A DNA stretch of 64,000 bases from Candidatus Buchananbacteria bacterium (GTDB lineage: Bacteria; Patescibacteriota; Patescibacteriia; 2-01-FULL-39-33), in the NCBI GenBank assembly GCA_903888345.1, contig CAISTG010000015.1:11474-75473 (forward strand). Direction: 5' to 3'. The first letter of the stretch is position 1. Every line of letters starts with the position of its first letter. A model generated the notes under the pieces. The model was not told the DNA's origin. It ran no database searches and was given only the letters and a program-made list of their open reading frames with translations. The position numbers and the translations under genes were made by a program. Positions 30,813-57,341 of the stretch are shown piece after piece.

Positions 30813-30883
30813 AGTACTTATCTAGGCCAAAATCTTGGCCTAATTAATTTTCACTAAAATCCGCCGCGGCGGACCCTACCCCT

Positions 30884-32341: not shown

Positions 32342-32350
32342 TGGCTACTC

Positions 32351-32441
32351 CGTCATTGCGAGAAGCCAACAGGCGACGAAGCAATCTTTCTGGCCATGTT
32401 CTAGTAATCTTCAAGATTGCTTCGCTGAGCTCGCAATGACG
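32351..32441. repeat. 91-bp GC-rich palindromic (MITE/REP-like) element, the empty member of the CGTCAT...ATGACG family
   Basis: Arms cgtcattgcgag...ctcgcaatgacg (12/12) and gaagcaatctt...aagattgcttc (11/11) flank a central loop. Begins 10 nt after the ABC-F stop. Confidence 0.6.
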
Positions 32442-32461
32442 AAACAATATAAAACTAAAAT

Positions 32462-44370: not shown

Positions 44371-44457
44371 ATTTTTGGTTTAATTTAAGGGCTTAGCCCT
44401 GAGGCGTAAAGCGCCACCAATAACGGTGGTGACAAGTTACAGTAAACAAGTTCTAGG

Positions 44458-44763
44458 CTCAGCGGACTGGATTCGAACCAGTAACCTACCGGTTACACTT
44501 ATCCCTAACTTTCGTTAAAGCGTGGACTATATCATTACCTTTTTTCCTGACGGAATTTTAGGTATCGGGCGCTTCGAATTAGCTACTGCTAACCCTACTC
44601 CCTTGCGGGATAGTCTCTGCACCTTTCCGCCGAGGCGGACTTGGCTCAGGATTACCATTTTAAAGGCTTCCCTGAATTCACCCGATTTTCATTCCGAAGT
44701 TTCCTTCGGAAGCTGCGTCTTATTTGTTCACAGCCGGTTGCTCTACCATTGAGCTACCGCTGA
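44458..44763 (-). tRNA. tRNA-Asn(GUU) interrupted by a 234-nt group I intron in the anticodon loop (between nt 35 and 36)
   Basis: 5' exon (44730-44763): TCAGCGG TA GCTC AATGGTA GAGC A ACCGG CTGT. 3' exon (44458-44495): TAA CCGGT AGGTT ACTGG TTCGAAT CCAGT CCGCTGA G. Spliced loop CUGUUAA and G73 match E. coli tRNA-Asn. Acceptor, D, anticodon and T stems are all perfectly paired. Confidence 0.8.
44496..44729 (-). ncRNA. Group I self-splicing intron (tRNA-anticodon-loop type)
   Basis: Contains the conserved R element GTGCAGAGACTATCC (consensus GUUCAGAGACUA) and S element GATATAGTCC (consensus AAGAUAUAGUCC), which form P7. P/Q-like AATTCAGGGAAGCC / AATCCTGAGCC. Internal guide GCAGCU pairs with the exon end GGCUGU with a U-G pair at the splice site. 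The intron ends in G (omega-G) before TAACCGGT. Too short to encode a protein. Confidence 0.75.
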
Positions 44764-46309: not shown

Positions 46310-46327
46310 TATTTATGATAACTACAG

Positions 46328-46357
46328 GATTCCCGCCTTCGCGGGAATGACAGCGGA
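46328..46357. repeat. GC-rich hairpin element GGATTCCCGC-cttc-GCGGGAATGACAGCGG, a member of the ATGAC(G/A) repeat family
   Basis: Perfect 8-bp stem ATTCCCGC/GCGGGAAT. Shares the GGATTCCCG...GGAATGAC framework with the element at 53459-53497. Abuts the rpoD stop codon. Confidence 0.5.
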
Positions 46358-50062: not shown

Positions 50063-50434
50063 GTGATTAAAGCCTCTGAACTCGACCTGCGCCTGGAACA
50101 GCATCGCCAAGAAATTCTCGCTCACTTCAATTCTGCCTTGATCCAACTGGTTACTAAATTTAATAGCAATCGGAATTTCCTAAGACTTTGGGAGAAACTT
50201 GACGACGCCACTTTCGAAAACTCGACCCCCTTCGCCGTCAATTCTGATTTTAAGATCTCACTCTTAGACATTATCAATCTGCCCGGTTACGAAAAGTTGC
50301 GCGAACTTTGCGCTGAGCGGAATTTCCGTTTGAAAATCGAACTCAAAAATGATCCCGTCATTAGCGAAGCGATCATTTGGCCGACACTTATGATTACGAT
50401 TACTAAAGTTCAACCTAGCGCTCACCCAGAGTGA
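50063..50434 (+). CDS. Hypothetical protein (123 aa, GTG start). Its C-terminus is encoded partly by the conserved leader repeat.
   Basis: SD aggag 11 nt upstream of the GTG. Ends ...TKVQPSAHPE inside repeat copy A. Confidence 0.4.
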   Translation: MIKASELDLRLEQHRQEILAHFNSALIQLVTKFNSNRNFLRLWEKLDDATFENSTPFAVNSDFKISLLDIINLPGYEKLRELCAERNFRLKIELKNDPVISEAIIWPTLMITITKVQPSAHPE

Positions 50435-50460
50435 GACCGAACAGAAAGGAAGCCGACATG
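50409..50460 (+). repeat. Conserved 52-nt leader element, copy A (hairpin CTCAC-CCAGA-GTGAG plus SD AAAGGAAG, then ATG)
   Basis: 49/52 nt identical to 51443-51493: TTCAACCTAGCRCTCACCCAGAGTGAGACCGARYAGAAAGGAAGCCGACATG. Confidence 0.7.
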
Positions 50461-50892
50461 CCGAAACAATCAACTATCGGTGCCGCACTTAAGTCGCGAC
50501 ATGAAAATATTTTGAAAGCACGGGCGGCAGAAGAGGCAATCAGAAAAGATAATATTGCCAGACCATTTCGCCAACAAGCAGAAAAGATGGTCGACGAAAT
50601 TATGGCGTTCGCTAATAATTGCAGTTTGCCTGACGAACTCATACTTAAGAGAGAATGGGAAGTAGGCTATATAGACATTCAAAAAGAGTTTAAGGAAGTA
50701 ATCGAGCAAGAAATATACTCGGGGCGCTTAGTTCCTAGTAATCTAATCACCGAATTTTGTAAAAACATCTTCGAGAACTTTAAAACTCAAGGCGGAGGCA
50801 AAATTCTGACTGATTTTTGTACCAAGCAAGACCTGCCCCTAAACATTTCTTTAAATGCGGGCTGGACCATCTCCTGCACCATTACCTGGTAA
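50458..50892 (+). CDS. Hypothetical protein (144 aa), paralog of 51491-51928
   Basis: ATG preceded by aaaggaag. C-terminal ...LTDFCTKQDLPLNISLNAGWTISCTITW resembles the paralog's ...LTDFCQENQLTLCLALSGSIIFLTISW. Confidence 0.5.
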   Translation: MPKQSTIGAALKSRHENILKARAAEEAIRKDNIARPFRQQAEKMVDEIMAFANNCSLPDELILKREWEVGYIDIQKEFKEVIEQEIYSGRLVPSNLITEFCKNIFENFKTQGGGKILTDFCTKQDLPLNISLNAGWTISCTITW

Positions 50893-50931: not shown

Positions 50932-51408
50932 GTGGGCAACCAACCGACTGAAGATACGCACCAACTACTGGAAAGATTACGTCAGAATTATGAAGATTAT
51001 CTGGCGGACTGTCGACGACAGAATGAAGTCATTCGCGAGGAAATGCAACAATTAATCTGTCTGACTTTTAACGAGCGGCTTAATAATCAATTCGCCCAAC
51101 TTACCAATCTGCGCTATTGGGCGCCACGCTTTGAATTGCAATCGGAAACAGCCAACCAATGCCCCATCTGCTCCATTGCTATTGACGGCATCAAACCTGA
51201 CCACGGCTGGGTCAACCATGCCTACTTTGCTGAAAAGGCAGCGGAAATGTCCGCCAACTATTCCACGATCAAATTTTATTGGGAGAGATTAGGATTCGAC
51301 GTCAAAATTCAACGCAATGAAAATAAAGAATTCAACGGAACGATTGTTTTGCAGATTGTTATCGGTTGGCTCGGAAATTCAAAACGCGGCCACCCACGCA
51401 GACAATAA
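50932..51408 (+). CDS. Hypothetical protein (158 aa, GTG start) with a CPIC motif
   Basis: ORF. Occupies the same position as 50063-50434 in the second tandem module. Confidence 0.4.
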   Translation: MGNQPTEDTHQLLERLRQNYEDYLADCRRQNEVIREEMQQLICLTFNERLNNQFAQLTNLRYWAPRFELQSETANQCPICSIAIDGIKPDHGWVNHAYFAEKAAEMSANYSTIKFYWERLGFDVKIQRNENKEFNGTIVLQIVIGWLGNSKRGHPRRQ

Positions 51409-51442: not shown

Positions 51443-51493
51443 TCAACCTAGCACTCACCCAGAGTGAGACCGAGTAGAAAGGAAGCCGACATG
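51443..51493 (+). repeat. Conserved 52-nt leader element, copy B
   Basis: See copy A. Upstream similarity extends about 20 nt further (acgatta...ttcaacc). Confidence 0.7.
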
Positions 51494-51928
51494 TCAAATC
51501 TAGGGGAGCTACTGCACCTCAAATATACTGAGGCAGTCGAGGCAAGAAAGATCAATGAGGAAAAGATCCGGCAACGGAAAACCTATCCTTTTTCTGATTA
51601 TCTTATTCAATTAATTACTACTTTGCCTGAGACACTGCTATCAGTTGCCGCAAGTGGGAGGAAATATTTCAAATTGGATTTAGCAAATGAATTCGCTAAA
51701 GAAATACAAGAAATTGAAGATGGTTACGGTTTTCGGCACAATCAGCCAGCAAAACAGATGATAGACAGCCTGTATAATGATTTAAAGTTTAATTTCGAAA
51801 AAAATTCTTTGGCACCACTAACTGATTTTTGCCAGGAAAACCAGCTAACACTTTGCCTTGCACTTAGTGGCTCAATAATATTCCTAACTATTAGTTGGGA
51901 AGAATGGCCACCGGCGCCAACTGAATGA
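51491..51928 (+). CDS. Hypothetical protein (145 aa), paralog of 50458-50892
   Basis: Same leader and SD, and similar C-terminus. Confidence 0.5.
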   Translation: MSNLGELLHLKYTEAVEARKINEEKIRQRKTYPFSDYLIQLITTLPETLLSVAASGRKYFKLDLANEFAKEIQEIEDGYGFRHNQPAKQMIDSLYNDLKFNFEKNSLAPLTDFCQENQLTLCLALSGSIIFLTISWEEWPPAPTE

Positions 51929-51989: not shown

Positions 51990-52406
51990 TTAGTTCTTCC
52001 ACAGACCATGCAGATTGCAATAGGCGCGAGCGATAACTGCTTCAGCTTCTTCGGGAATTTCAAATTCCGTTTCTGGTAGATCTCCCGGATGAAAGAAATG
52101 CTTGTAGCTAATAGTATCTTCAGGAGCATTAGCGGTTTTTGGCAAGACTACCAACAACTCAACCCATTCGATATAGTGCGCCCCTTCCATCGGATGGGCG
52201 ACTGAACCGACTTTGACGGCCACCTTAGTGCCATCACGCTCCACTACCGGCACATGCTTTTCGGTTGCAGCGTCAGTGCTATTTTCAGTTTGTAATGCCA
52301 TTTCCTGGCCACAACAAACCAAAGTGCCACCACCAACATGGACCACTTCAACAATATTGCCACAGACTGAGCATTTATAAACTTCGTTTAAAGATGTAAC
52401 TGCCAT
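51990..52406 (-). CDS. dfx: Desulfoferrodoxin (2Fe superoxide reductase), 138 aa
   Basis: N-terminal desulforedoxin [28 protein letters not shown] domain [11 protein letters not shown]..., [18 protein letters not shown]. Confidence 0.85.
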
Positions 52407-52418
52407 ATGTTTTTATTA

Positions 52419-52805
52419 CGTCATCCTGAGCTTGCGAAGGATCTCATTCTTTAACCACTAAAATTTTCAGATAAATCCTTCCAACCAGGATTAAAATTAT
52501 TAATTAAATCTACTTTCTTTTGCCTTATCCATCCCTTAATTTGCTTTTCTCTAATAAGCGAATCATTTATCGACTCACTATATTCATACCAAACTAATTT
52601 ATCCGCATTATACTTCCTAACAAATTGAGATATTCTTTGTTCTTTGGTTTTATATTCCCAAATTCTTCGCAATAAATCATTAGTAACTCCGATATACAGT
52701 ACCTTATTATATTTATTAGTAGTTATATAAACATAATAGTATTTTTCCGACATATGTAAAGTAACATGGGATTCTTCACTCCGTTAAACTTCGTTCAGGA
52801 TGACG
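52419..52805. mobile_element. 387-bp palindromic-repeat element carrying a GIY-YIG gene, inserted between rubrerythrin and desulfoferrodoxin
   Basis: Terminal inverted repeats cgtcatcctgagc (52419-52431) and gttcaggatgacg (52793-52805), 12/13 match. Same CGTCAT...ATGACG end family as the empty element at 32351-32441. The left end is 13 nt upstream of the dfx start codon. The right end is 11 nt past the rbr stop. Confidence 0.55.
52451..52753 (-). CDS. GIY-YIG nuclease-superfamily protein (COG2827/UPF0213-like), 100 aa
   Basis: YYVYITTN...LYIGVTNDLLRRIWEYK. GIY-YIG motif with the conserved Arg/Glu. Confidence 0.75.
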   Translation of the reverse strand: MSEKYYYVYITTNKYNKVLYIGVTNDLLRRIWEYKTKEQRISQFVRKYNADKLVWYEYSESINDSLIREKQIKGWIRQKKVDLINNFNPGWKDLSENFSG

Positions 52806-52815
52806 CGGCGATTGA

Positions 52816-53400
52816 TTAGTAATTTTCAGATTTTATTTGAGAGAAAGCTTGAGCATGATTACAACTAGGACATTCTTGTAACGCTTCCTTACCAAAATGG
52901 ACATAACCACATTCACGGCAAACCCACCAAACCTCTTCTTCTTTTTTGAAAACAGTTCCAGCTTCAACTTCTTTTAGGATTTTCAAATAGCGTTCTTCAT
53001 GATGCTCTTCGGCTTTAGCAATTGATCTCAGGCGCGCCGCTAATTTTGGATAACCTTCCTCATCAGCCGTCGTTGCAAATTCCGGATACATCGTGACATG
53101 TTCGTAATTTTCACCGGCAATCGCTGCTTTTAAATTATCGGCTGTGGTGCCATAAGTAGTTGGTACTTCCGCTTCAATTTTAATTGCAGTCAAATCATCG
53201 GTTGACAATTTTTTGAGAGTTTGAATTTCTTCAAATAATTTAGCAGCATGTTCACGCTCCTGGTCCGCAGTCATTAAAAATATTTCAGCGATTTGCTCGA
53301 AGCCCTCTTTCTTGGCAACTTTGCTATACATCGTGTAACGATTACGCGCCTGCGATTCACCGACAAAGGCCTTACAAAGATTAGTAATAGTTTTGGTCAT
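52816..53400 (-). CDS. rbr: Rubrerythrin (ferritin-like diiron domain plus C-terminal rubredoxin), 194 aa
   Basis: ESQARNRYTMYS...EEREHA, a second E..H pair, C-terminal WVCRECGYVHFGKEALQECPSCNH. Confidence 0.85.
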   Translation of the reverse strand: MTKTITNLCKAFVGESQARNRYTMYSKVAKKEGFEQIAEIFLMTADQEREHAAKLFEEIQTLKKLSTDDLTAIKIEAEVPTTYGTTADNLKAAIAGENYEHVTMYPEFATTADEEGYPKLAARLRSIAKAEEHHEERYLKILKEVEAGTVFKKEEEVWWVCRECGYVHFGKEALQECPSCNHAQAFSQIKSENY

Positions 53401-53458: not shown

Positions 53459-53497
53459 TTAAATAAGTGGATTCCCGTCCGCCGCGGCGGACTGGAA
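53459..53497. repeat. GC-rich compound hairpin GGATTCCCG-TCCGCCGCGGCGGA-CTGGAATGACGCTCGG
   Basis: Perfect 14-nt palindrome TCCGCCGCGGCGGA, identical to 30860-30873 upstream of the ABC-F gene. Flanked by GGATTCC/GGAAT. Carries the ATGACG family motif. Confidence 0.5.
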
Positions 53498-53559
53498 TGA
53501 CGCTCGGTTATTTTTAGTTATCGTATTTTACCACACTACTGTTTATTTTGACAACTCCT

Positions 53560-55623
53560 CTAACGATCCCCTTTTACTGACTCAATTTCATCTAAAACCT
53601 CATCAGCGGGCGGGTTGGTTGCTAACGTTACCGAATTACTCGCAACTACTGGTGGCACATAATTTTCTTCTAAGACGCCGTCTTCGGTTTCAATTAATGG
53701 TTCGGGCTTAGGTAACAAGGAGGCCAAACTCATCGCTGGAGCTTTAATGGTTTCTTCTTTAATGGCCAGACCTTCCATCTGACGTACCTGCGGATCACGC
53801 TCCTCGGTTTTCTTGCGCCTCTCTTCACGAACTTTCTTAAAGCAATCATCACAATAAGTTGGACGGCCTAAATCTGGTTTGAATTTCAATTTAAAATCCT
53901 TATGGCACAATGTACAACTAGCCGCATACAATTCGGTGCTTAGTGGCTTGTCGCGACCAACTAACCGTGGTGGTTCTATTTTAACTGGCGTTGCAGCTAT
54001 CGGTCGTTCATTCGGACGATCCGAGCGCATCGATGCCGGACCACTAATGGGAGTACTCTGGCGTTCTTCGCGACGCGGCATTGGCCGATCGCTTCCGGAA
54101 CGCGTTTGATCGCGACGCGGATCTAATCGTGGTCGCTCCTCACGCGGTGGACGCTCGCTAAACTTCGGCTTCGGTGACAAAGTGCCCTGACCTAATTCTG
54201 ACAGACTAATGGTCGGACCAGCAGCATTTAGCGCTTCCTTCATTGGTACAATCTCACCTAATTGAAATTCTTCATTCGGACCAGGTTTACCTTCACTACT
54301 AGCGCTCGAAACCATACCCATCTTCGATGCCAAATCCATGCCACTCCAACGATTAATGCGCTCTTCCACTTCCGCGCGCGGATGCGAATAGCGTTCGCGT
54401 GAAACTTGAATAACTTTTTGAGTGCTATTGGTCCGATAATCGCCAAATAGCGGCGGTAAAGTGGCCGCCGAAAACGGATCAGAAGAAACACCATCAATCA
54501 TTAACTTTAAATAAATGGCGAAAGCTGGCAAATTAACTAAGTCCTCTTCCGTAAAAAATGGAGCGAATTCCAGAACTAATTTCTCAGCATCAGCAGCACC
54601 GACACGGAAACAAATCAGTGTACCGACGTTACCAAACACACCGGCCTGTACTGTCTCTGGCAATTGCTCGATATATTGGTGCGCCACCACTAAATTCAAA
54701 CGATATTTTCTAGCTTCAGACAAAATGTCGGCAAAAGAATCAGTCGCAAAATTCTGAAATTCGTCGACATACAGATAAAAATCTTTACGTTCGTTTTCTG
54801 GCATGTCCACGCGACTCATCGCCGCCATGTATAATTTTGTAACTATCATTGAGCCCAATAATTGCATCGTATCTTCACCAATACGACCCTTGGATAAATC
54901 CAAAATTAAGATTTTTTGGTTGTCCATGACGTCACGCAGGTCGATGGTTGATTTGACTTGGCCAATAATATTTCTAATCAAAAAGTTTGATAAAAACTGT
55001 CCAACTTTATTTTGAATAGGAGAAATAACTTCCTGCAACACGCGATCATTCCATTTCGTAAATTCATTAACCCAGAAACTGCGTACCACCGGATCCTTGA
55101 TTTTTTCGACTACCTTTTCGCGATAATCTTTCTCCACCAGAATTCTCATAACGCCCAACATAGTGGAACCAGGATAATCCAACAAAGCCATAATCGTGTT
55201 GCGCAAAATATATTCCAAACGTGGTCCCCAACTTTCAGCGAATTGCTTTTTGAAAATAGAAACAATGCCGGAAGCAATCAAATGCTTATGCGATTCTTCC
55301 ACCGATTCCATGATATTAAAAGCGATCGGAAACTGCGTATCCGCCGGTGAAAAGTAAATAACATCATTAATACGATTGCTCGGAATAAAATCCAGAATTT
55401 TCTGGGCCGTATCGCCATGAGGATCGATGTAACAACAACCCTCGCCATTGATAATATCGGAGATGATCAAATTTTCTAGTAAGGTCGTTTTACCCATACC
55501 GGTTTTACCGATAATGTACATATGTCGGCGACGATCATCGCGCTTAATACCAAAAGAGCGCGCTTCATTGCGATAATTAGTGGAACCAAAAATTGTAACG
55601 TCGTTTTTGTTGGCTTCAGCCAT
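53560..55623 (-). CDS. VirB4/VirD4/HerA-superfamily P-loop ATPase (AAA-like/DUF87-type) with a C-terminal disordered Arg/Pro-rich region and a Zn ribbon (687 aa)
   Basis: HMYIIGKTGMGKTTLLENL...CCYIDPHGD (Walker A plus the PHG motif typical of this clade). DFYLYVDEFQNF (Walker B). LNLVVAHQYIEQL (TQ..QL-like). C-terminal CTLCHKDFK...YCDDCFKK. Confidence 0.55.
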   Translation of the reverse strand: MAEANKNDVTIFGSTNYRNEARSFGIKRDDRRRHMYIIGKTGMGKTTLLENLIISDIINGEGCCYIDPHGDTAQKILDFIPSNRINDVIYFSPADTQFPIAFNIMESVEESHKHLIASGIVSIFKKQFAESWGPRLEYILRNTIMALLDYPGSTMLGVMRILVEKDYREKVVEKIKDPVVRSFWVNEFTKWNDRVLQEVISPIQNKVGQFLSNFLIRNIIGQVKSTIDLRDVMDNQKILILDLSKGRIGEDTMQLLGSMIVTKLYMAAMSRVDMPENERKDFYLYVDEFQNFATDSFADILSEARKYRLNLVVAHQYIEQLPETVQAGVFGNVGTLICFRVGAADAEKLVLEFAPFFTEEDLVNLPAFAIYLKLMIDGVSSDPFSAATLPPLFGDYRTNSTQKVIQVSRERYSHPRAEVEERINRWSGMDLASKMGMVSSASSEGKPGPNEEFQLGEIVPMKEALNAAGPTISLSELGQGTLSPKPKFSERPPREERPRLDPRRDQTRSGSDRPMPRREERQSTPISGPASMRSDRPNERPIAATPVKIEPPRLVGRDKPLSTELYAASCTLCHKDFKLKFKPDLGRPTYCDDCFKKVREERRKKTEERDPQVRQMEGLAIKEETIKAPAMSLASLLPKPEPLIETEDGVLEENYVPPVVASNSVTLATNPPADEVLDEIESVKGDR

Positions 55624-55634
55624 AAAATTAGTGT

Positions 55635-57341
55635 TTAAGCGAATGGTAAATTACTAGGCGGCGCACCTTTGCGTTCGGGCGCAATATTTGGACCGACTGC
55701 CGGTGGCACTGGTGCCAAACCCGGACCGGATGGTGTAATCGGTGTTACTGCCGGTATAGTGTAAGTGGGCACTTCGGGCTCACTTGGGCTAACCGAAGGC
55801 TGATGAATTGGCGCACCTGGTGCTTGAAAATTAGGGGCAGCTGGAGAAACTGGTGCTGTTCGCGGTGGATGTCGTTCTTCTTTTTTAACAGCCGGACCAA
55901 CACGATCCATATATGGCAAACGAGTAGGCGGTGCGGATTTCTTACTATCAATCTTACCGACTTGAACGGCTTTAACTGTCATTACTGGGAAGTGCCAGAG
56001 CGTTGCTAATTCTTCTGGATTTAATAAAGTTAATTTGGTCATCTCGTTGCTCTCGCCATACCAAGCGCTACGATTACAATACCAACGCAACAACCGCGTT
56101 TGTTTTTTGGCAATGCGTTGATTAACAAAAAAATAATCAGCCGAAGTTTTGGTATAACCATTAGGCTTAAAAGCATTGGCATCACTCGTATTGAATTGCT
56201 GGAAAGCACCAGACACACCAGTGACACCACGCCCTTTAGCAAAGACAGCATGCTTACCAATATAGAGCATACGGAATCTAACCTTAAATGCTTGCTTCGA
56301 TAATTTCTGCTCTACTCGCTCCAAAACACTACGCTCGCCCGGAGTAATTTTAAACATGCGCCACTGATCTTCTTCTTTTTTCTTATCAACAGCAGCCGCG
56401 CCCCACGGCGTTCCAGTGATTTCTCCTAATAACCCAGTGCCCCAAGCGGCCGCACCTTCCAAGGGAGCAGAAACGAACTTCGTCGGATCAAAAGATTCCG
56501 GTGCTTTATATTCACGACCCTGTAATTTCGAGACCACCTTTTTGGCTTCTTCACCCCAACCCGGTGGTTGTGGTTGAATAACCAATTGAATCCAAATTTG
56601 TTCACCTTCACCAATACGACTCATAATTTCCATCAAGTTAGCCATTGGGTCTAAGAAAGTCTGCGTTTGTTGATGTTCAAATTCTGGATAGGTCTTAATT
56701 GGATACGGATAAGTTTTAACTAAAACGAATTCCGAGCCCCACATATTATAAATCTTGTTCGGAAAGGGCAACTGTCTAAACGTTAACGGCTCACCCGTCT
56801 GTGGATTGGTTGCCTCGGAATCATAATCAACGTAGTCAGAAACCTCATTAATTTCGGCCTCTGGATACTGAGAATAAATTACTGATTCGATAAAATCACG
56901 AAATTGATTAGGTGTTCGAATCAAAAACCGCGTATGCCCCTCAATACTGACAATTTCAAATGAAAAACTTTCCGTTACTTTACCGCTCCAATATTTATCA
57001 ATCAAATTTGAAGACGTATAAACACCGGCTAAAGCCGCAAATAGATTTTCGACTGCTTTTGGGGTTTGCTCGTTATTCTTCGGAATATCTACCGCCAATA
57101 AGGTATGCTTCCATTTCCCCTGGAATTGACCAGCTCGATATTCCAGAAAAACAAATTGATACATGCCCCACAAATATAAAACAACTATAATCAACCAACC
57201 ACCGTGGCTAAATAATTGCCAAGCGATCGTTAAGGGGCTTTGGGTCGCAAAAATTAAAAAATAACCCCAAATTCCAGTGGCAGAAAAATAATTTCCGACA
57301 CTGCTTACAAGACCACCGAAGGGATCAAAAGTTGGATTCAT
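55635..57341 (-). CDS. Polytopic membrane protein (4 N-terminal TM) with a large soluble domain and a Pro-rich C-terminus (568 aa). Possible secretion/DNA-transfer partner of the adjacent ATPase.
   Basis: Hydrophobic N-terminus. Ends only 12 nt before the ATPase start (operon). No enzymatic motif. Confidence 0.45.
   Translation of the reverse strand: MNPTFDPFGGLVSSVGNYFSATGIWGYFLIFATQSPLTIAWQLFSHGGWLIIVVLYLWGMYQFVFLEYRAGQFQGKWKHTLLAVDIPKNNEQTPKAVENLFAALAGVYTSSNLIDKYWSGKVTESFSFEIVSIEGHTRFLIRTPNQFRDFIESVIYSQYPEAEINEVSDYVDYDSEATNPQTGEPLTFRQLPFPNKIYNMWGSEFVLVKTYPYPIKTYPEFEHQQTQTFLDPMANLMEIMSRIGEGEQIWIQLVIQPQPPGWGEEAKKVVSKLQGREYKAPESFDPTKFVSAPLEGAAAWGTGLLGEITGTPWGAAAVDKKKEEDQWRMFKITPGERSVLERVEQKLSKQAFKVRFRMLYIGKHAVFAKGRGVTGVSGAFQQFNTSDANAFKPNGYTKTSADYFFVNQRIAKKQTRLLRWYCNRSAWYGESNEMTKLTLLNPEELATLWHFPVMTVKAVQVGKIDSKKSAPPTRLPYMDRVGPAVKKEERHPPRTAPVSPAAPNFQAPGAPIHQPSVSPSEPEVPTYTIPAVTPITPSGPGLAPVPPAVGPNIAPERKGAPPSNLPFA

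Follow-up and report, generated by a model that had tools for sequence, protein, structure and literature searches.

The segment at positions 52419 to 52805 of a 64,000-nt stretch of contig CAISTG010000015.1 from Candidatus Buchananbacteria bacterium (the whole stretch is called the window here) is read as an ssnA-type cassette, in which the gene for an Ssn nuclease is enclosed by the inverted, CGTC-tagged hairpins that would be its cognate sites. The probability of this reading is put at about 0.85. The gene, designated ssn, lies between rbr and dfx, the genes for rubrerythrin and desulfoferrodoxin. It is filed as Ssn-type because its product is homologous to SsnA of Neisseria, retains the invariant catalytic residues and gives a model with the GIY-YIG fold, and because a GTC tag, an AT stem and a 3' C recur in six hairpin units of the window. 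By analogy with the published pairing of Ssn proteins with NTS/SRM hairpins, these hairpins are best understood as the sites that the nuclease recognises on single-stranded DNA (ssDNA), and from the same analogy we infer that the window protein would cleave ssDNA, at which positions it would cut, and any role that it may have in mobility or in the control of incoming ssDNA. A preliminary description of the window had reported an inverted-repeat-bounded segment with a 100-aa GIY-YIG open reading frame (ORF) between rbr and dfx, and the coordinates, the repeat match and the Pfam assignment bear this out. The features of the locus are shown in Table 1.

Table 1 Features of the cassette locus and hairpin units elsewhere in the window
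Feature	Coordinates	Strand	Evidence
ssn, 100-aa single-domain GIY-YIG nuclease gene	52451..52753	-	Pfam PF01541, SsnA homology
rbr, rubrerythrin gene, upstream neighbour	52816..53400	-	NCBIfam RuberyRbr NF045767, 2e-72
dfx, desulfoferrodoxin gene, downstream neighbour	51990..52406	-	TIGR00320, 7.7e-52
Upstream forward (F) hairpin unit	52766..52808	-	Covariance model R1, 19.3 bits, E=0.029
Downstream reverse (R) hairpin unit, reads forward on +	52416..52447	+	R1, 33.6 bits, E=1.4e-5
Putative inserted segment, ~395 nt: cassette plus ~4 nt beyond each CGTC tag	52415..52809	-	Residual-spacer comparison with L168
ORF-less head-to-head doublet, ATTGC/GCAAT dialect, downstream of the ABC-F gene	32348..32444	F + (32348-32390), R - (32411-32444)	R1 (F, E=1.5; R, E=0.015), ssDNA fold
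Single hairpin of the NTS type, TGTCATTCCCGCGAAGGCGGGAATCCTG, immediately past the stop codon of rpoD	46324..46355	-	SRM motif, R1 (E=0.27)
NTS-like hairpin CGTCATTCC..GGAATC, between a promoter-like site and the rbr start codon	53466..53505	-	R1 (E=3.1), ssDNA fold

The nuclease

SsnA of N. meningitidis, on which the Ssn family was founded, is a 94-aa single-domain GIY-YIG protein (CDD cd10448). It binds its hairpin repeat, NTS (CGTCATTCCCGCGMAVGCGGGAATCYRG), only when this is single-stranded, and the cut falls a few nucleotides upstream of the repeat; the enzyme has no activity on double-stranded DNA (dsDNA) and does not bind RNA (Chenal et al., Nat Commun 2025, PMC11893778). For binding, the C that follows the NTS palindrome is critical, and for cleavage the three nucleotides that precede the palindrome; the mutants Y6A, Y17A and E64A are inactive (PMC11893778). 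The product of the window gene matches the Pfam GIY-YIG family over residues 5-80 (E=5.8e-12) and is 44 % identical over 87 aa to SsnA of N. gonorrhoeae in a pairwise BLASTP comparison (E=1e-23), for which the 94-aa ORF of the gonococcal locus L166 was used. A tblastn search of a 7.3-Gb database with the window protein finds the gonococcal ssnA locus at E=2e-14, below the published threshold of E < 1e-10. The AlphaFold2 (AF2) model is a single compact domain with a pLDDT of 88.6, and its best matches among Protein Data Bank (PDB) folds are GIY-YIG domains, those of the UPF0213 protein BH0048, Slx1 and UvrC; a PDB sequence search returned only distant UPF0213 proteins and no solved Ssn member.

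Residues Y6, Y17 and E64 of SsnA align with Y9, Y20 and E69 of the window protein. In a set of 122 homologs Y9, Y20, R30, E69 and N88 are invariant, and all are kept in the window copy. Judged by sequence homology to SsnA, the protein is a member of the Ssn family of site-specific ssDNA nucleases. PADLOC returned no defence-system match.

Terminal repeats and gene arrangement

The segment begins with CGTCATCCTGAGC (52419-52431) and ends with GTTCAGGATGACG (52793-52805). These contain an exact inverted repeat of 11 nt, CGTCATCCTGA (52419-52429) and TCAGGATGACG (52795-52805), which extends to 12/13 nt, and the 11-mer has no exact copies in the window other than these two. An 11-nt inverted repeat within 400 nt is by itself only mildly unlikely to arise by chance; it is judged to be more than that because a covariance model built from the hairpins of other genomes, described below, matches the units of the window.

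Each repeat is part of a larger hairpin unit. The upstream unit reads CGTC-ATCCT-GA-AC..GT-GA-AGAAT-C on the coding strand, with one C.A mismatch in the lower stem, and ends 16 nt before the ssn ATG, a position and orientation that are canonical for the homolog clade. The downstream unit reads CGTC-ATCCT-GA-GC-TT-GC-GA-AGGAT-C on the plus strand and starts 5 nt past the ssn stop codon. All three genes are on the minus strand, with 10 nt between the rbr stop codon and the repeat and 12 nt between the repeat and the dfx ATG. They are probably co-transcribed, which is plausible because no terminator-like site was found on the minus strand between rbr and dfx and a promoter-like site lies upstream of rbr (53554-53525, minus strand). 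The GC content of ssn is 26.7 %, against 39.8 % for rbr and 46.3 % for dfx, and the gene is compositionally foreign.

The hairpin family at homologous loci

Homologs of the ORF with 48-59 % identity to the window protein were collected at 80 loci, whose hosts are Firmicutes, Chloroflexota, Cyanobacteria, several phyla of the candidate phyla radiation (CPR), Proteobacteria, Bacteroidota and others. Upstream of almost every one of these genes lies a sequence of the form (T/C)GTC-AT-NNN-GAGC..loop..GCGA(A)-N'N'N'-AT-C, and its reverse complement follows just past the stop codon. The triplets NNN and N'N'N' change together (TGC/GCA, CCT/AGG, TCT/AGA, GCT/AGC, TCC/GGA, TTC/GAA). A first, loose regular expression for the hairpin gave 74 matches in the window against 47 in shuffles, and the counts were redone with a stricter definition, under which the 706 kb of the 80 loci hold 425 units against 38 in dinucleotide shuffles, with 68 % of the units within 500 nt of the gene. 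The layout forward unit, gene, reverse unit is found at 37 of the 50 loci that have units on both sides (binomial p=5e-13 against an expected 25 %).

For the structure of the hairpin, 62 distinct 25-nt units from other genomes were aligned. The five lower stem pairs are imposed by the search and so prove nothing, but the upper pair (columns 15-21) is not imposed and covaries (GC in 31 units, AU in 27, CG in 2, GU in 1 and unpaired in 1), and the hairpin is therefore taken to be real. The GA/GA positions form tandem G.A in some units and Watson-Crick GA/TC in others. Apical loops of the GCGNAGC type (GC-GNA-GC) are classic stable DNA mini-hairpins, and the motif fits a structure at the level of DNA rather than RNA.

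The clade of the window protein shows two discrete stem dialects, ATTGC/GCAAT (TGC) and AT(T/C/G)CT/AG(A/G/C)AT (NCT), and in none of the 46 loci with both hairpins are they mixed at one gene. Protein identity is 62.0 % within a dialect against 58.3 % between dialects (permutation p<0.0005), a pattern that fits the co-evolution of enzyme and site anticipated by PMC11893778. A homolog of ssn on a Planktothrix agardhii plasmid (NZ_LR882964.1, 18847-19131; L167; 56 % identical) has NCT-dialect hairpins on both sides and lies between an MmeI-type IIL restriction-modification gene and DISARM drmA, that is, in a defence-island context.

The covariance model, R1, was built only from these 62 units and was run over the window with filters off. 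Its top match in the whole window is the unit downstream of ssn, and five further matches have E-values from 0.015 to 3.1 (Table 1). All six units have a (C/T)GTC tag, an AT..AT stem and a 3' C.

It is very unlikely that the inverted repeat is a chance match, a reading that was rejected, or a feature acting in RNA, such as a stabiliser or processing site of the mRNA, that has nothing to do with the nuclease. In favour of such a reading, the hairpins flanking ssn are individually weak, those at 46324 and 32348-32444 lie just after stop codons, and REP (repetitive extragenic palindromic) elements elsewhere in bacteria are reported to act as elements of 3' untranslated regions. However, a model trained on other genomes matches the window hairpins, units cluster round ssn genes in a biased orientation, SsnA does not bind RNA, the apical loops are of the type seen in DNA mini-hairpins, and Rfam holds no matching family: no relevant family was found with the whole window at the gathering threshold, and between 52300 and 52900 at E<=10 only a chance match to bantam appeared.

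Observations that weigh against the cassette reading

Some results speak against an ssnA-type cassette or against its being functional. By nearest-neighbour DNA energy neither hairpin next to ssn is unusually stable (z about 0), in an energy model that gives no credit to tandem G.A pairs. The published SRM search motif, HGTCWYN(0-2)YYVSBRHN(0-5)WNVSBRGN(0-2)RNCYNB, coded as a regular expression and used as a search tool rather than a definition of the family, matches neither of the two. It also flanks 0 of the 80 homolog loci, though most of these are visibly flanked by hairpins, and its one match in the window is at 46325-46352 on the minus strand (0.12 expected by chance). The clade of the window protein uses a "GA-bulge" dialect, GTCAT-NNN-GAGC..GCGA(A)-N'N'N'-ATC, in which the lower stem is short and carries a bulge of GA. 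The published motif misses this dialect.

The protein itself differs at residue 34, which is Tyr in the window copy (Tyr in 2 of the 122 homologs) and His in 120 of them, SsnA included. Codon 34 (52652-52654) is TAT in the window and CAT in the close relatives L172 and L174. A sequencing error is not the explanation, because the identical protein occurs in several samples. By its position we take His34 to be the conserved His that stands four residues after the catalytic Arg in I-TevI, and the change to Tyr may have weakened catalysis or left the window copy catalytically impaired.

Insertion into the rbr-dfx spacer

Homologs of RpoD (75-86 % identity) place the host in the Patescibacteria, close to Buchananbacteria/Parcubacteria. 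Relatives with the gene order DUF8128-TrwB-rbr-dfx...dnaG-rpoD and without ssn are L168, L175 and L177/L178, in which rbr and dfx are separated by 10 nt (AATCAAAAAT), 12 nt and 17 nt, respectively, and whose Rbr identity is 76-82 %. None of 80 further dfx loci carries a GIY-YIG gene, and the closest Rbr homologs among them have spacers of 11-25 nt. Three lineages have the cassette at exactly this position, namely the window itself, L172/L173 (Rbr 93 % identical) and L174 (Rbr 87 % identical). The number of hairpin units differs among them. Counted as upstream plus downstream units, the window has 1+1. L172 has 2+3: an F-R doublet precedes the gene, and an R unit and then another F-R doublet come after it. 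L174 has 3+1, with a doublet (F-R) plus a single F before the gene and one R after it.

By Rbr distances the empty L168 falls outside the three filled lineages, and the insertion predates 7-13 % divergence of the Rbr protein. Because of this position of L168, and because the site is the same while unit numbers differ, the simplest history is one ancestral insertion followed by vertical descent with local gain and loss of hairpins. The suggestion that the cassette splits an ancestral rbr-dfx pair is thus upheld, with empty sites of 10-17 nt in the three syntenic relatives. Plain vertical inheritance of the gene without repeats, which would have spoken against a repeat-bounded element, is not what the relatives show, as L172/L173 and L174 all carry repeats.

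When ~395 nt are removed from the window, TCAATC/AAAAACAT is left, which resembles the L168 spacer. From this one short AT-rich comparison, and with low confidence, the boundaries of the insertion may lie ~4 nt outside each CGTC tag, which is about where SsnA makes its cut. An empty site is predicted to read GAAAATTACTAATCAATC/AAAAACATATGGCAG (the slash marks the join, at which 0-4 further nt are allowed for), and the candidate junction of an excised circle or of head-to-tail copies is ...CAGGATGACG(TAAT)(GCCG)CGTCATCCTG... No target-site duplication (TAA or CG) was identified at such divergence.

Among the 80 homolog loci there were no near-identical cassettes at different loci and no extra ssn copies within a locus, and no second ssn was found in the window. 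Contigs that encode identical Rbr or Dfx include no empty allele; all carry ssn or break inside or next to it. One contig (L082) begins 2 nt inside the terminal repeat, its position 1 being window 52420, and three others from independent metagenome assemblies (L083-L085) end inside the cassette, at window positions 52666, 52470 and 52487. Such breaks could reflect heterogeneity in the population or graph branching induced by the repeats, and L082 is suggestive but not proof of polymorphism. A locus that encodes the identical protein (L001) was considered as a second insertion site and rejected, as it has the same site followed by a variant dfx-N/rbr-like gene. On this 600-nt ENA contig the identical ssn is followed, at positions 392-598, by the first ~30 codons of dfx (a desulforedoxin-like N-terminus) and then by rubrerythrin-like sequence (..LMKAFAGESQARNKYEFFGELA). 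The contig represents either a population variant with a desulforubrerythrin-type fusion or a chimera made in assembly.

Window positions 51990-53400 were compared with positions 3307-4891 of L172. Nucleotide identity is 94.1 % in ssn, 85.6 % in rbr and 88.7 % in dfx, and synonymous codon changes number 9/101, 65/195 and 36/139, respectively; ssn is therefore less diverged than its flanks, with about three-fold fewer synonymous changes. A recent exchange of the cassette and a strong AT constraint at third codon positions are equally possible causes.

A free-standing GIY-YIG homing endonuclease, which would spread by cleavage of rbr-dfx alleles that lack it and by copying during their repair, with the repeats incidental, would also account for an AT-rich intergenic gene between conserved genes that is less diverged than its flanks. 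Weak matches of the product to phrog_314 (1.8e-5) and to the NCBIfam intron endonuclease family TIGR01453 (2.8e-4; 21 bits, below the cutoff of 56) point the same way. The explanation was nevertheless rejected and is highly improbable, as the protein is a single 100-aa domain without the DNA-binding extension of I-TevI and the Seg enzymes, its homolog SsnA is inactive on dsDNA, and the repeats are conserved, covarying and oriented at 80 loci in unrelated contexts.

Proposed mechanism and mobility

If it acts like its tested homologs from Neisseria and Wolbachia, the Ssn protein would bind its hairpin only in ssDNA, recognising the stem together with the GTC that immediately precedes it and the C that immediately follows it, and would then cut a few nucleotides 5' of the tag, in the orientation in which CGTC comes first. 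With inverted hairpins the predicted cuts would fall just outside the cassette, one per strand. The cassette would have entered the 10-17-nt rbr-dfx spacer in an ancestor of a Patescibacteria lineage close to Buchananbacteria and would have been inherited vertically since then, with gains and losses of the surrounding hairpin units and doublets.

The cassette may be a domesticated host function, a serious possibility that falls short of being probable: Ssn would restrict or process incoming or replicating ssDNA that bears hairpins, much as SsnA modulates natural transformation in Neisseria, and the hairpins close to ssn would serve chiefly as its marks or regulators. SsnA lowers the integration of NTS-flanked transforming DNA in N. 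meningitidis (PMC11893778), the cassette shows vertical descent in three related lineages, in which synonymous change per site exceeds nonsynonymous change, and the catalytic residues are invariant across phyla. Against this, about six hairpin units per 64 kb, together with the clustering of the clade's units near the gene, would leave few genomic targets marked, the three syntenic relatives live without ssn, and H34Y suggests relaxed constraint. A host function is compatible with an insertion sequence (IS)-like element.

Such an element, an autonomous transposon of hairpin-ssn-hairpin with Ssn as a transposase that cuts ssDNA outside the terminal hairpins during replication or DNA uptake, is a tentative proposal and on the unlikely side, although transposon-like mobility is plausible. 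The ORF-less doublets would derive from it and, like REPINs, be non-autonomous. The inverted layout puts the predicted cuts outside both ends; the insertion into the operon spacer is clean and damages neither neighbour; and the residual spacer fits boundaries at the distance from each tag at which SsnA cuts. The gene is AT-rich, unlike its neighbours, and has fewer synonymous changes than its flanks, homologs are 50-60 % identical across CPR, Cyanobacteria, Firmicutes, Chloroflexi, Proteobacteria and Bacteroidota, and the number of hairpin units varies between close relatives. The same hypothesis was raised by the Ssn authors, who note that NTS-ssnA-NTS resembles an insertion sequence (PMC11893778). 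On the other side, only one insertion event can be deduced, which predates the Rbr divergence given above and lies at one site in three lineages; there is no second ssn in the window, no near-identical cassette elsewhere among the 80 loci and no identifiable target-site duplication; strand transfer or ligation is not known for any 100-aa GIY-YIG domain; each cassette has one cleavable orientation per strand, unlike IS200/IS605; and the low synonymous divergence is also explicable by extreme AT bias at third positions.

A stronger version is unlikely: that the cassette is an active transposable element whose mechanism puts it in a new class, with a 100-aa GIY-YIG ssDNA nuclease as a transposase that cuts ~4 nt outside each hairpin and with non-autonomous ORF-less doublets, that rbr-dfx is its first mapped integration, and that the GA-bulge dialect is a separate cross-phylum specificity group that includes CPR. 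The cassette may also be a decaying relic. Where the preliminary description took the element to be mobile, its insertion is supported by the empty relatives, but the case for movement is one ancient event, with no second copy, target duplication or empty allele within the population found. The GIY-YIG gene is indeed nested between inverted units across the clade, but it is best read as encoding the cognate ssDNA enzyme of the hairpins and not as the cargo of a miniature inverted-repeat transposable element.

Hairpins elsewhere in the window

The window holds three dialects and one ssn: NCT units flank ssn, the 32348-32444 doublet is of the TGC dialect, and the hairpins at 46324 and 53466 are of the NTS type. 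Folded as ssDNA, the doublet (97 nt) forms one long hairpin at -25.9 kcal/mol (z=-6.1), the hairpin at 46324-46355 has -8.9 kcal/mol (z=-3.3) and that at 53466-53505 has -10.6 kcal/mol (z=-2.7). The 91-bp ORF-less element at 32351-32441, earlier taken for a cargo-less copy of the cassette, is real and consists of two inverted units, but it is not a deletion derivative, because its stem dialect differs (ATTGC/GCAAT, not ATCCT/AGGAT) and dialects never mix in the 46 loci. The shorter hairpins noted near 46328 and 53459 were found at 46328-46351 and 53470-53501, where both are stable as ssDNA, and the suggestion of a REP-like family was confirmed in that the repeats belong to the real and widespread CGTC-tagged REP (SRM) family.

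The 14-nt palindrome TCCGCCGCGGCGGA, which contains CCGCGG, has exactly two copies in the window, one at 30860-30873, just before the ABC-F start, and one at 53478-53491, nested in the loop of the 53470-53501 hairpin. The copy at 30860-30873 had been counted as a member of the hairpin family and is removed from it here, as it has no GTC tag and no R1 match. A similar sequence, CGCCGCGGCG, lies inside a hairpin loop downstream of the ssn gene in a Moraniibacteria genome (L051). The palindrome may represent another small element of this sort, with hairpin loops as its landing sites.

Other features of the window and its relatives

A full-length group I intron (Rfam RF00028, 96 bits) lies at 44503-44739, in the anticodon loop of a tRNA gene at 44457-44763 on the minus strand. 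The anticodon of the split tRNA is GUG (His) by reading, the 5' exon being ...ACCGGCTGTGAA and the 3' exon CCGGTAGG...GCTGAGCC; ARAGORN made no call. Three tandem ORFs of ~150 aa without a Pfam match occupy 50431-50892, 50932-51408 and 51464-51928 on the plus strand, and two of them open with near-identical upstream sequence (MRPNRKEADM and MRPSRKEADM if read from GTG). The region between dfx and dnaG differs in every syntenic relative. Directly upstream of rbr, 53560-57341 encodes a DUF8128 protein and a TrwB/VirD4-like coupling ATPase with a C-terminal treble-clef zinc finger, and this pair is kept upstream of rbr in all the relatives examined (L168, L169, L170, L172 and L177), so that a type IV coupling protein stands in a conserved chromosomal block.

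Significance

The Ssn system was described in 2025, and the present locus adds the GA-bulge dialect, a synteny series of empty and filled sites in CPR and a His-to-Tyr variant. Empty sites in three relatives and filled sites in three lineages indicate that the whole cassette entered an operon without damage to it and that local turnover of hairpins followed. The defined junction sequences make the hypothesis of mobility testable. Since the published motif misses the GA-bulge dialect of a large cross-phylum clade, surveys of the association between Ssn proteins and repeats undercount it. The range of enzyme and site pairs that could be used as ssDNA tools is wider than reported, and the change of His34 to Tyr is a natural variant with which the role of that residue can be tested. 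For annotation, small genes labelled "GIY-YIG nuclease family protein" with CGTCAT...ATGACG flanks should be named Ssn-type.

Comparison with known systems

Free-standing homing endonucleases (I-TevI, SegA-G) share with the window protein the GIY-YIG catalytic domain and insertion between conserved genes; unlike them, the window protein has no DNA-binding domain, its characterised homolog does not cut dsDNA, and the flanking hairpins have no counterpart there. IS200/IS605 elements (TnpA Y1, peel-and-paste) are similar in that subterminal hairpins are recognised on ssDNA and cleavage falls a few nucleotides from the hairpin. They differ in that both of their ends are cut on the same strand, their hairpins are not inverted copies, they are multicopy and their catalytic family is another one.

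The RAYT/REPIN (TnpA-REP) system is close in layout, with a small gene for a nuclease of hairpin ssDNA between two inverted repeats that the enzyme recognises, dispersed inverted doublets and mostly vertical inheritance. Membership in it was rejected, as both the enzyme family and the tag are wrong: the window has a GIY-YIG protein rather than an HUH/Y1 transposase and a CGTC rather than a GTAG tag, and no covalent intermediate or strand transfer is known for the enzyme of the window.

In the superfamily of CGTC-tagged REPs a CGTC/TGTC tag is left unpaired, as is a short tail, and AT opens the stem (Di Nocera, De Gregorio and Rocco, BMC Genomics 2013, PMC3733652). Its members are mostly head-to-head dimers and "apparently lack a dedicated transposase", and the survey describes four families with continuous stems of 8-9 bp, mostly in Alphaproteobacteria (PMC3733652). 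The units of the window agree with them in tag, AT stem and tail, and the 32348-32444 doublet is a head-to-head dimer, whereas the GA-bulge dialect and the CPR host lie outside that catalogue.

The nearest system is Ssn/NTS, in which 71 % of SsnA homologs have the motif nearby and 42 % have it on both sides (PMC11893778). In the hairpins of the window clade, unlike the NTS of Neisseria, a lower stem of 5 bp is followed by an internal loop, GA/GA(A), or by Watson-Crick GA/TC, and then by an upper stem of 2 bp that ends in a small loop. The nearest hairpins are arranged forward-gene-reverse at the window ssn and reverse-gene-forward at gonococcal ssnA, and the host belongs to the CPR and has few hairpins rather than hundreds. 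The window protein has Tyr in place of His34. In common with Ssn/NTS, the window protein is a single GIY-YIG domain of ~94-100 aa with the same catalytic Tyr, Tyr and Glu, its gene is flanked on both sides by inverted hairpins with a (C/T)GTC tag, a stem that starts with AT and a 3' C, and ORF-less copies of such hairpins occur elsewhere, of which the one at window 46325-46352 is nearly identical to the NTS of Neisseria.

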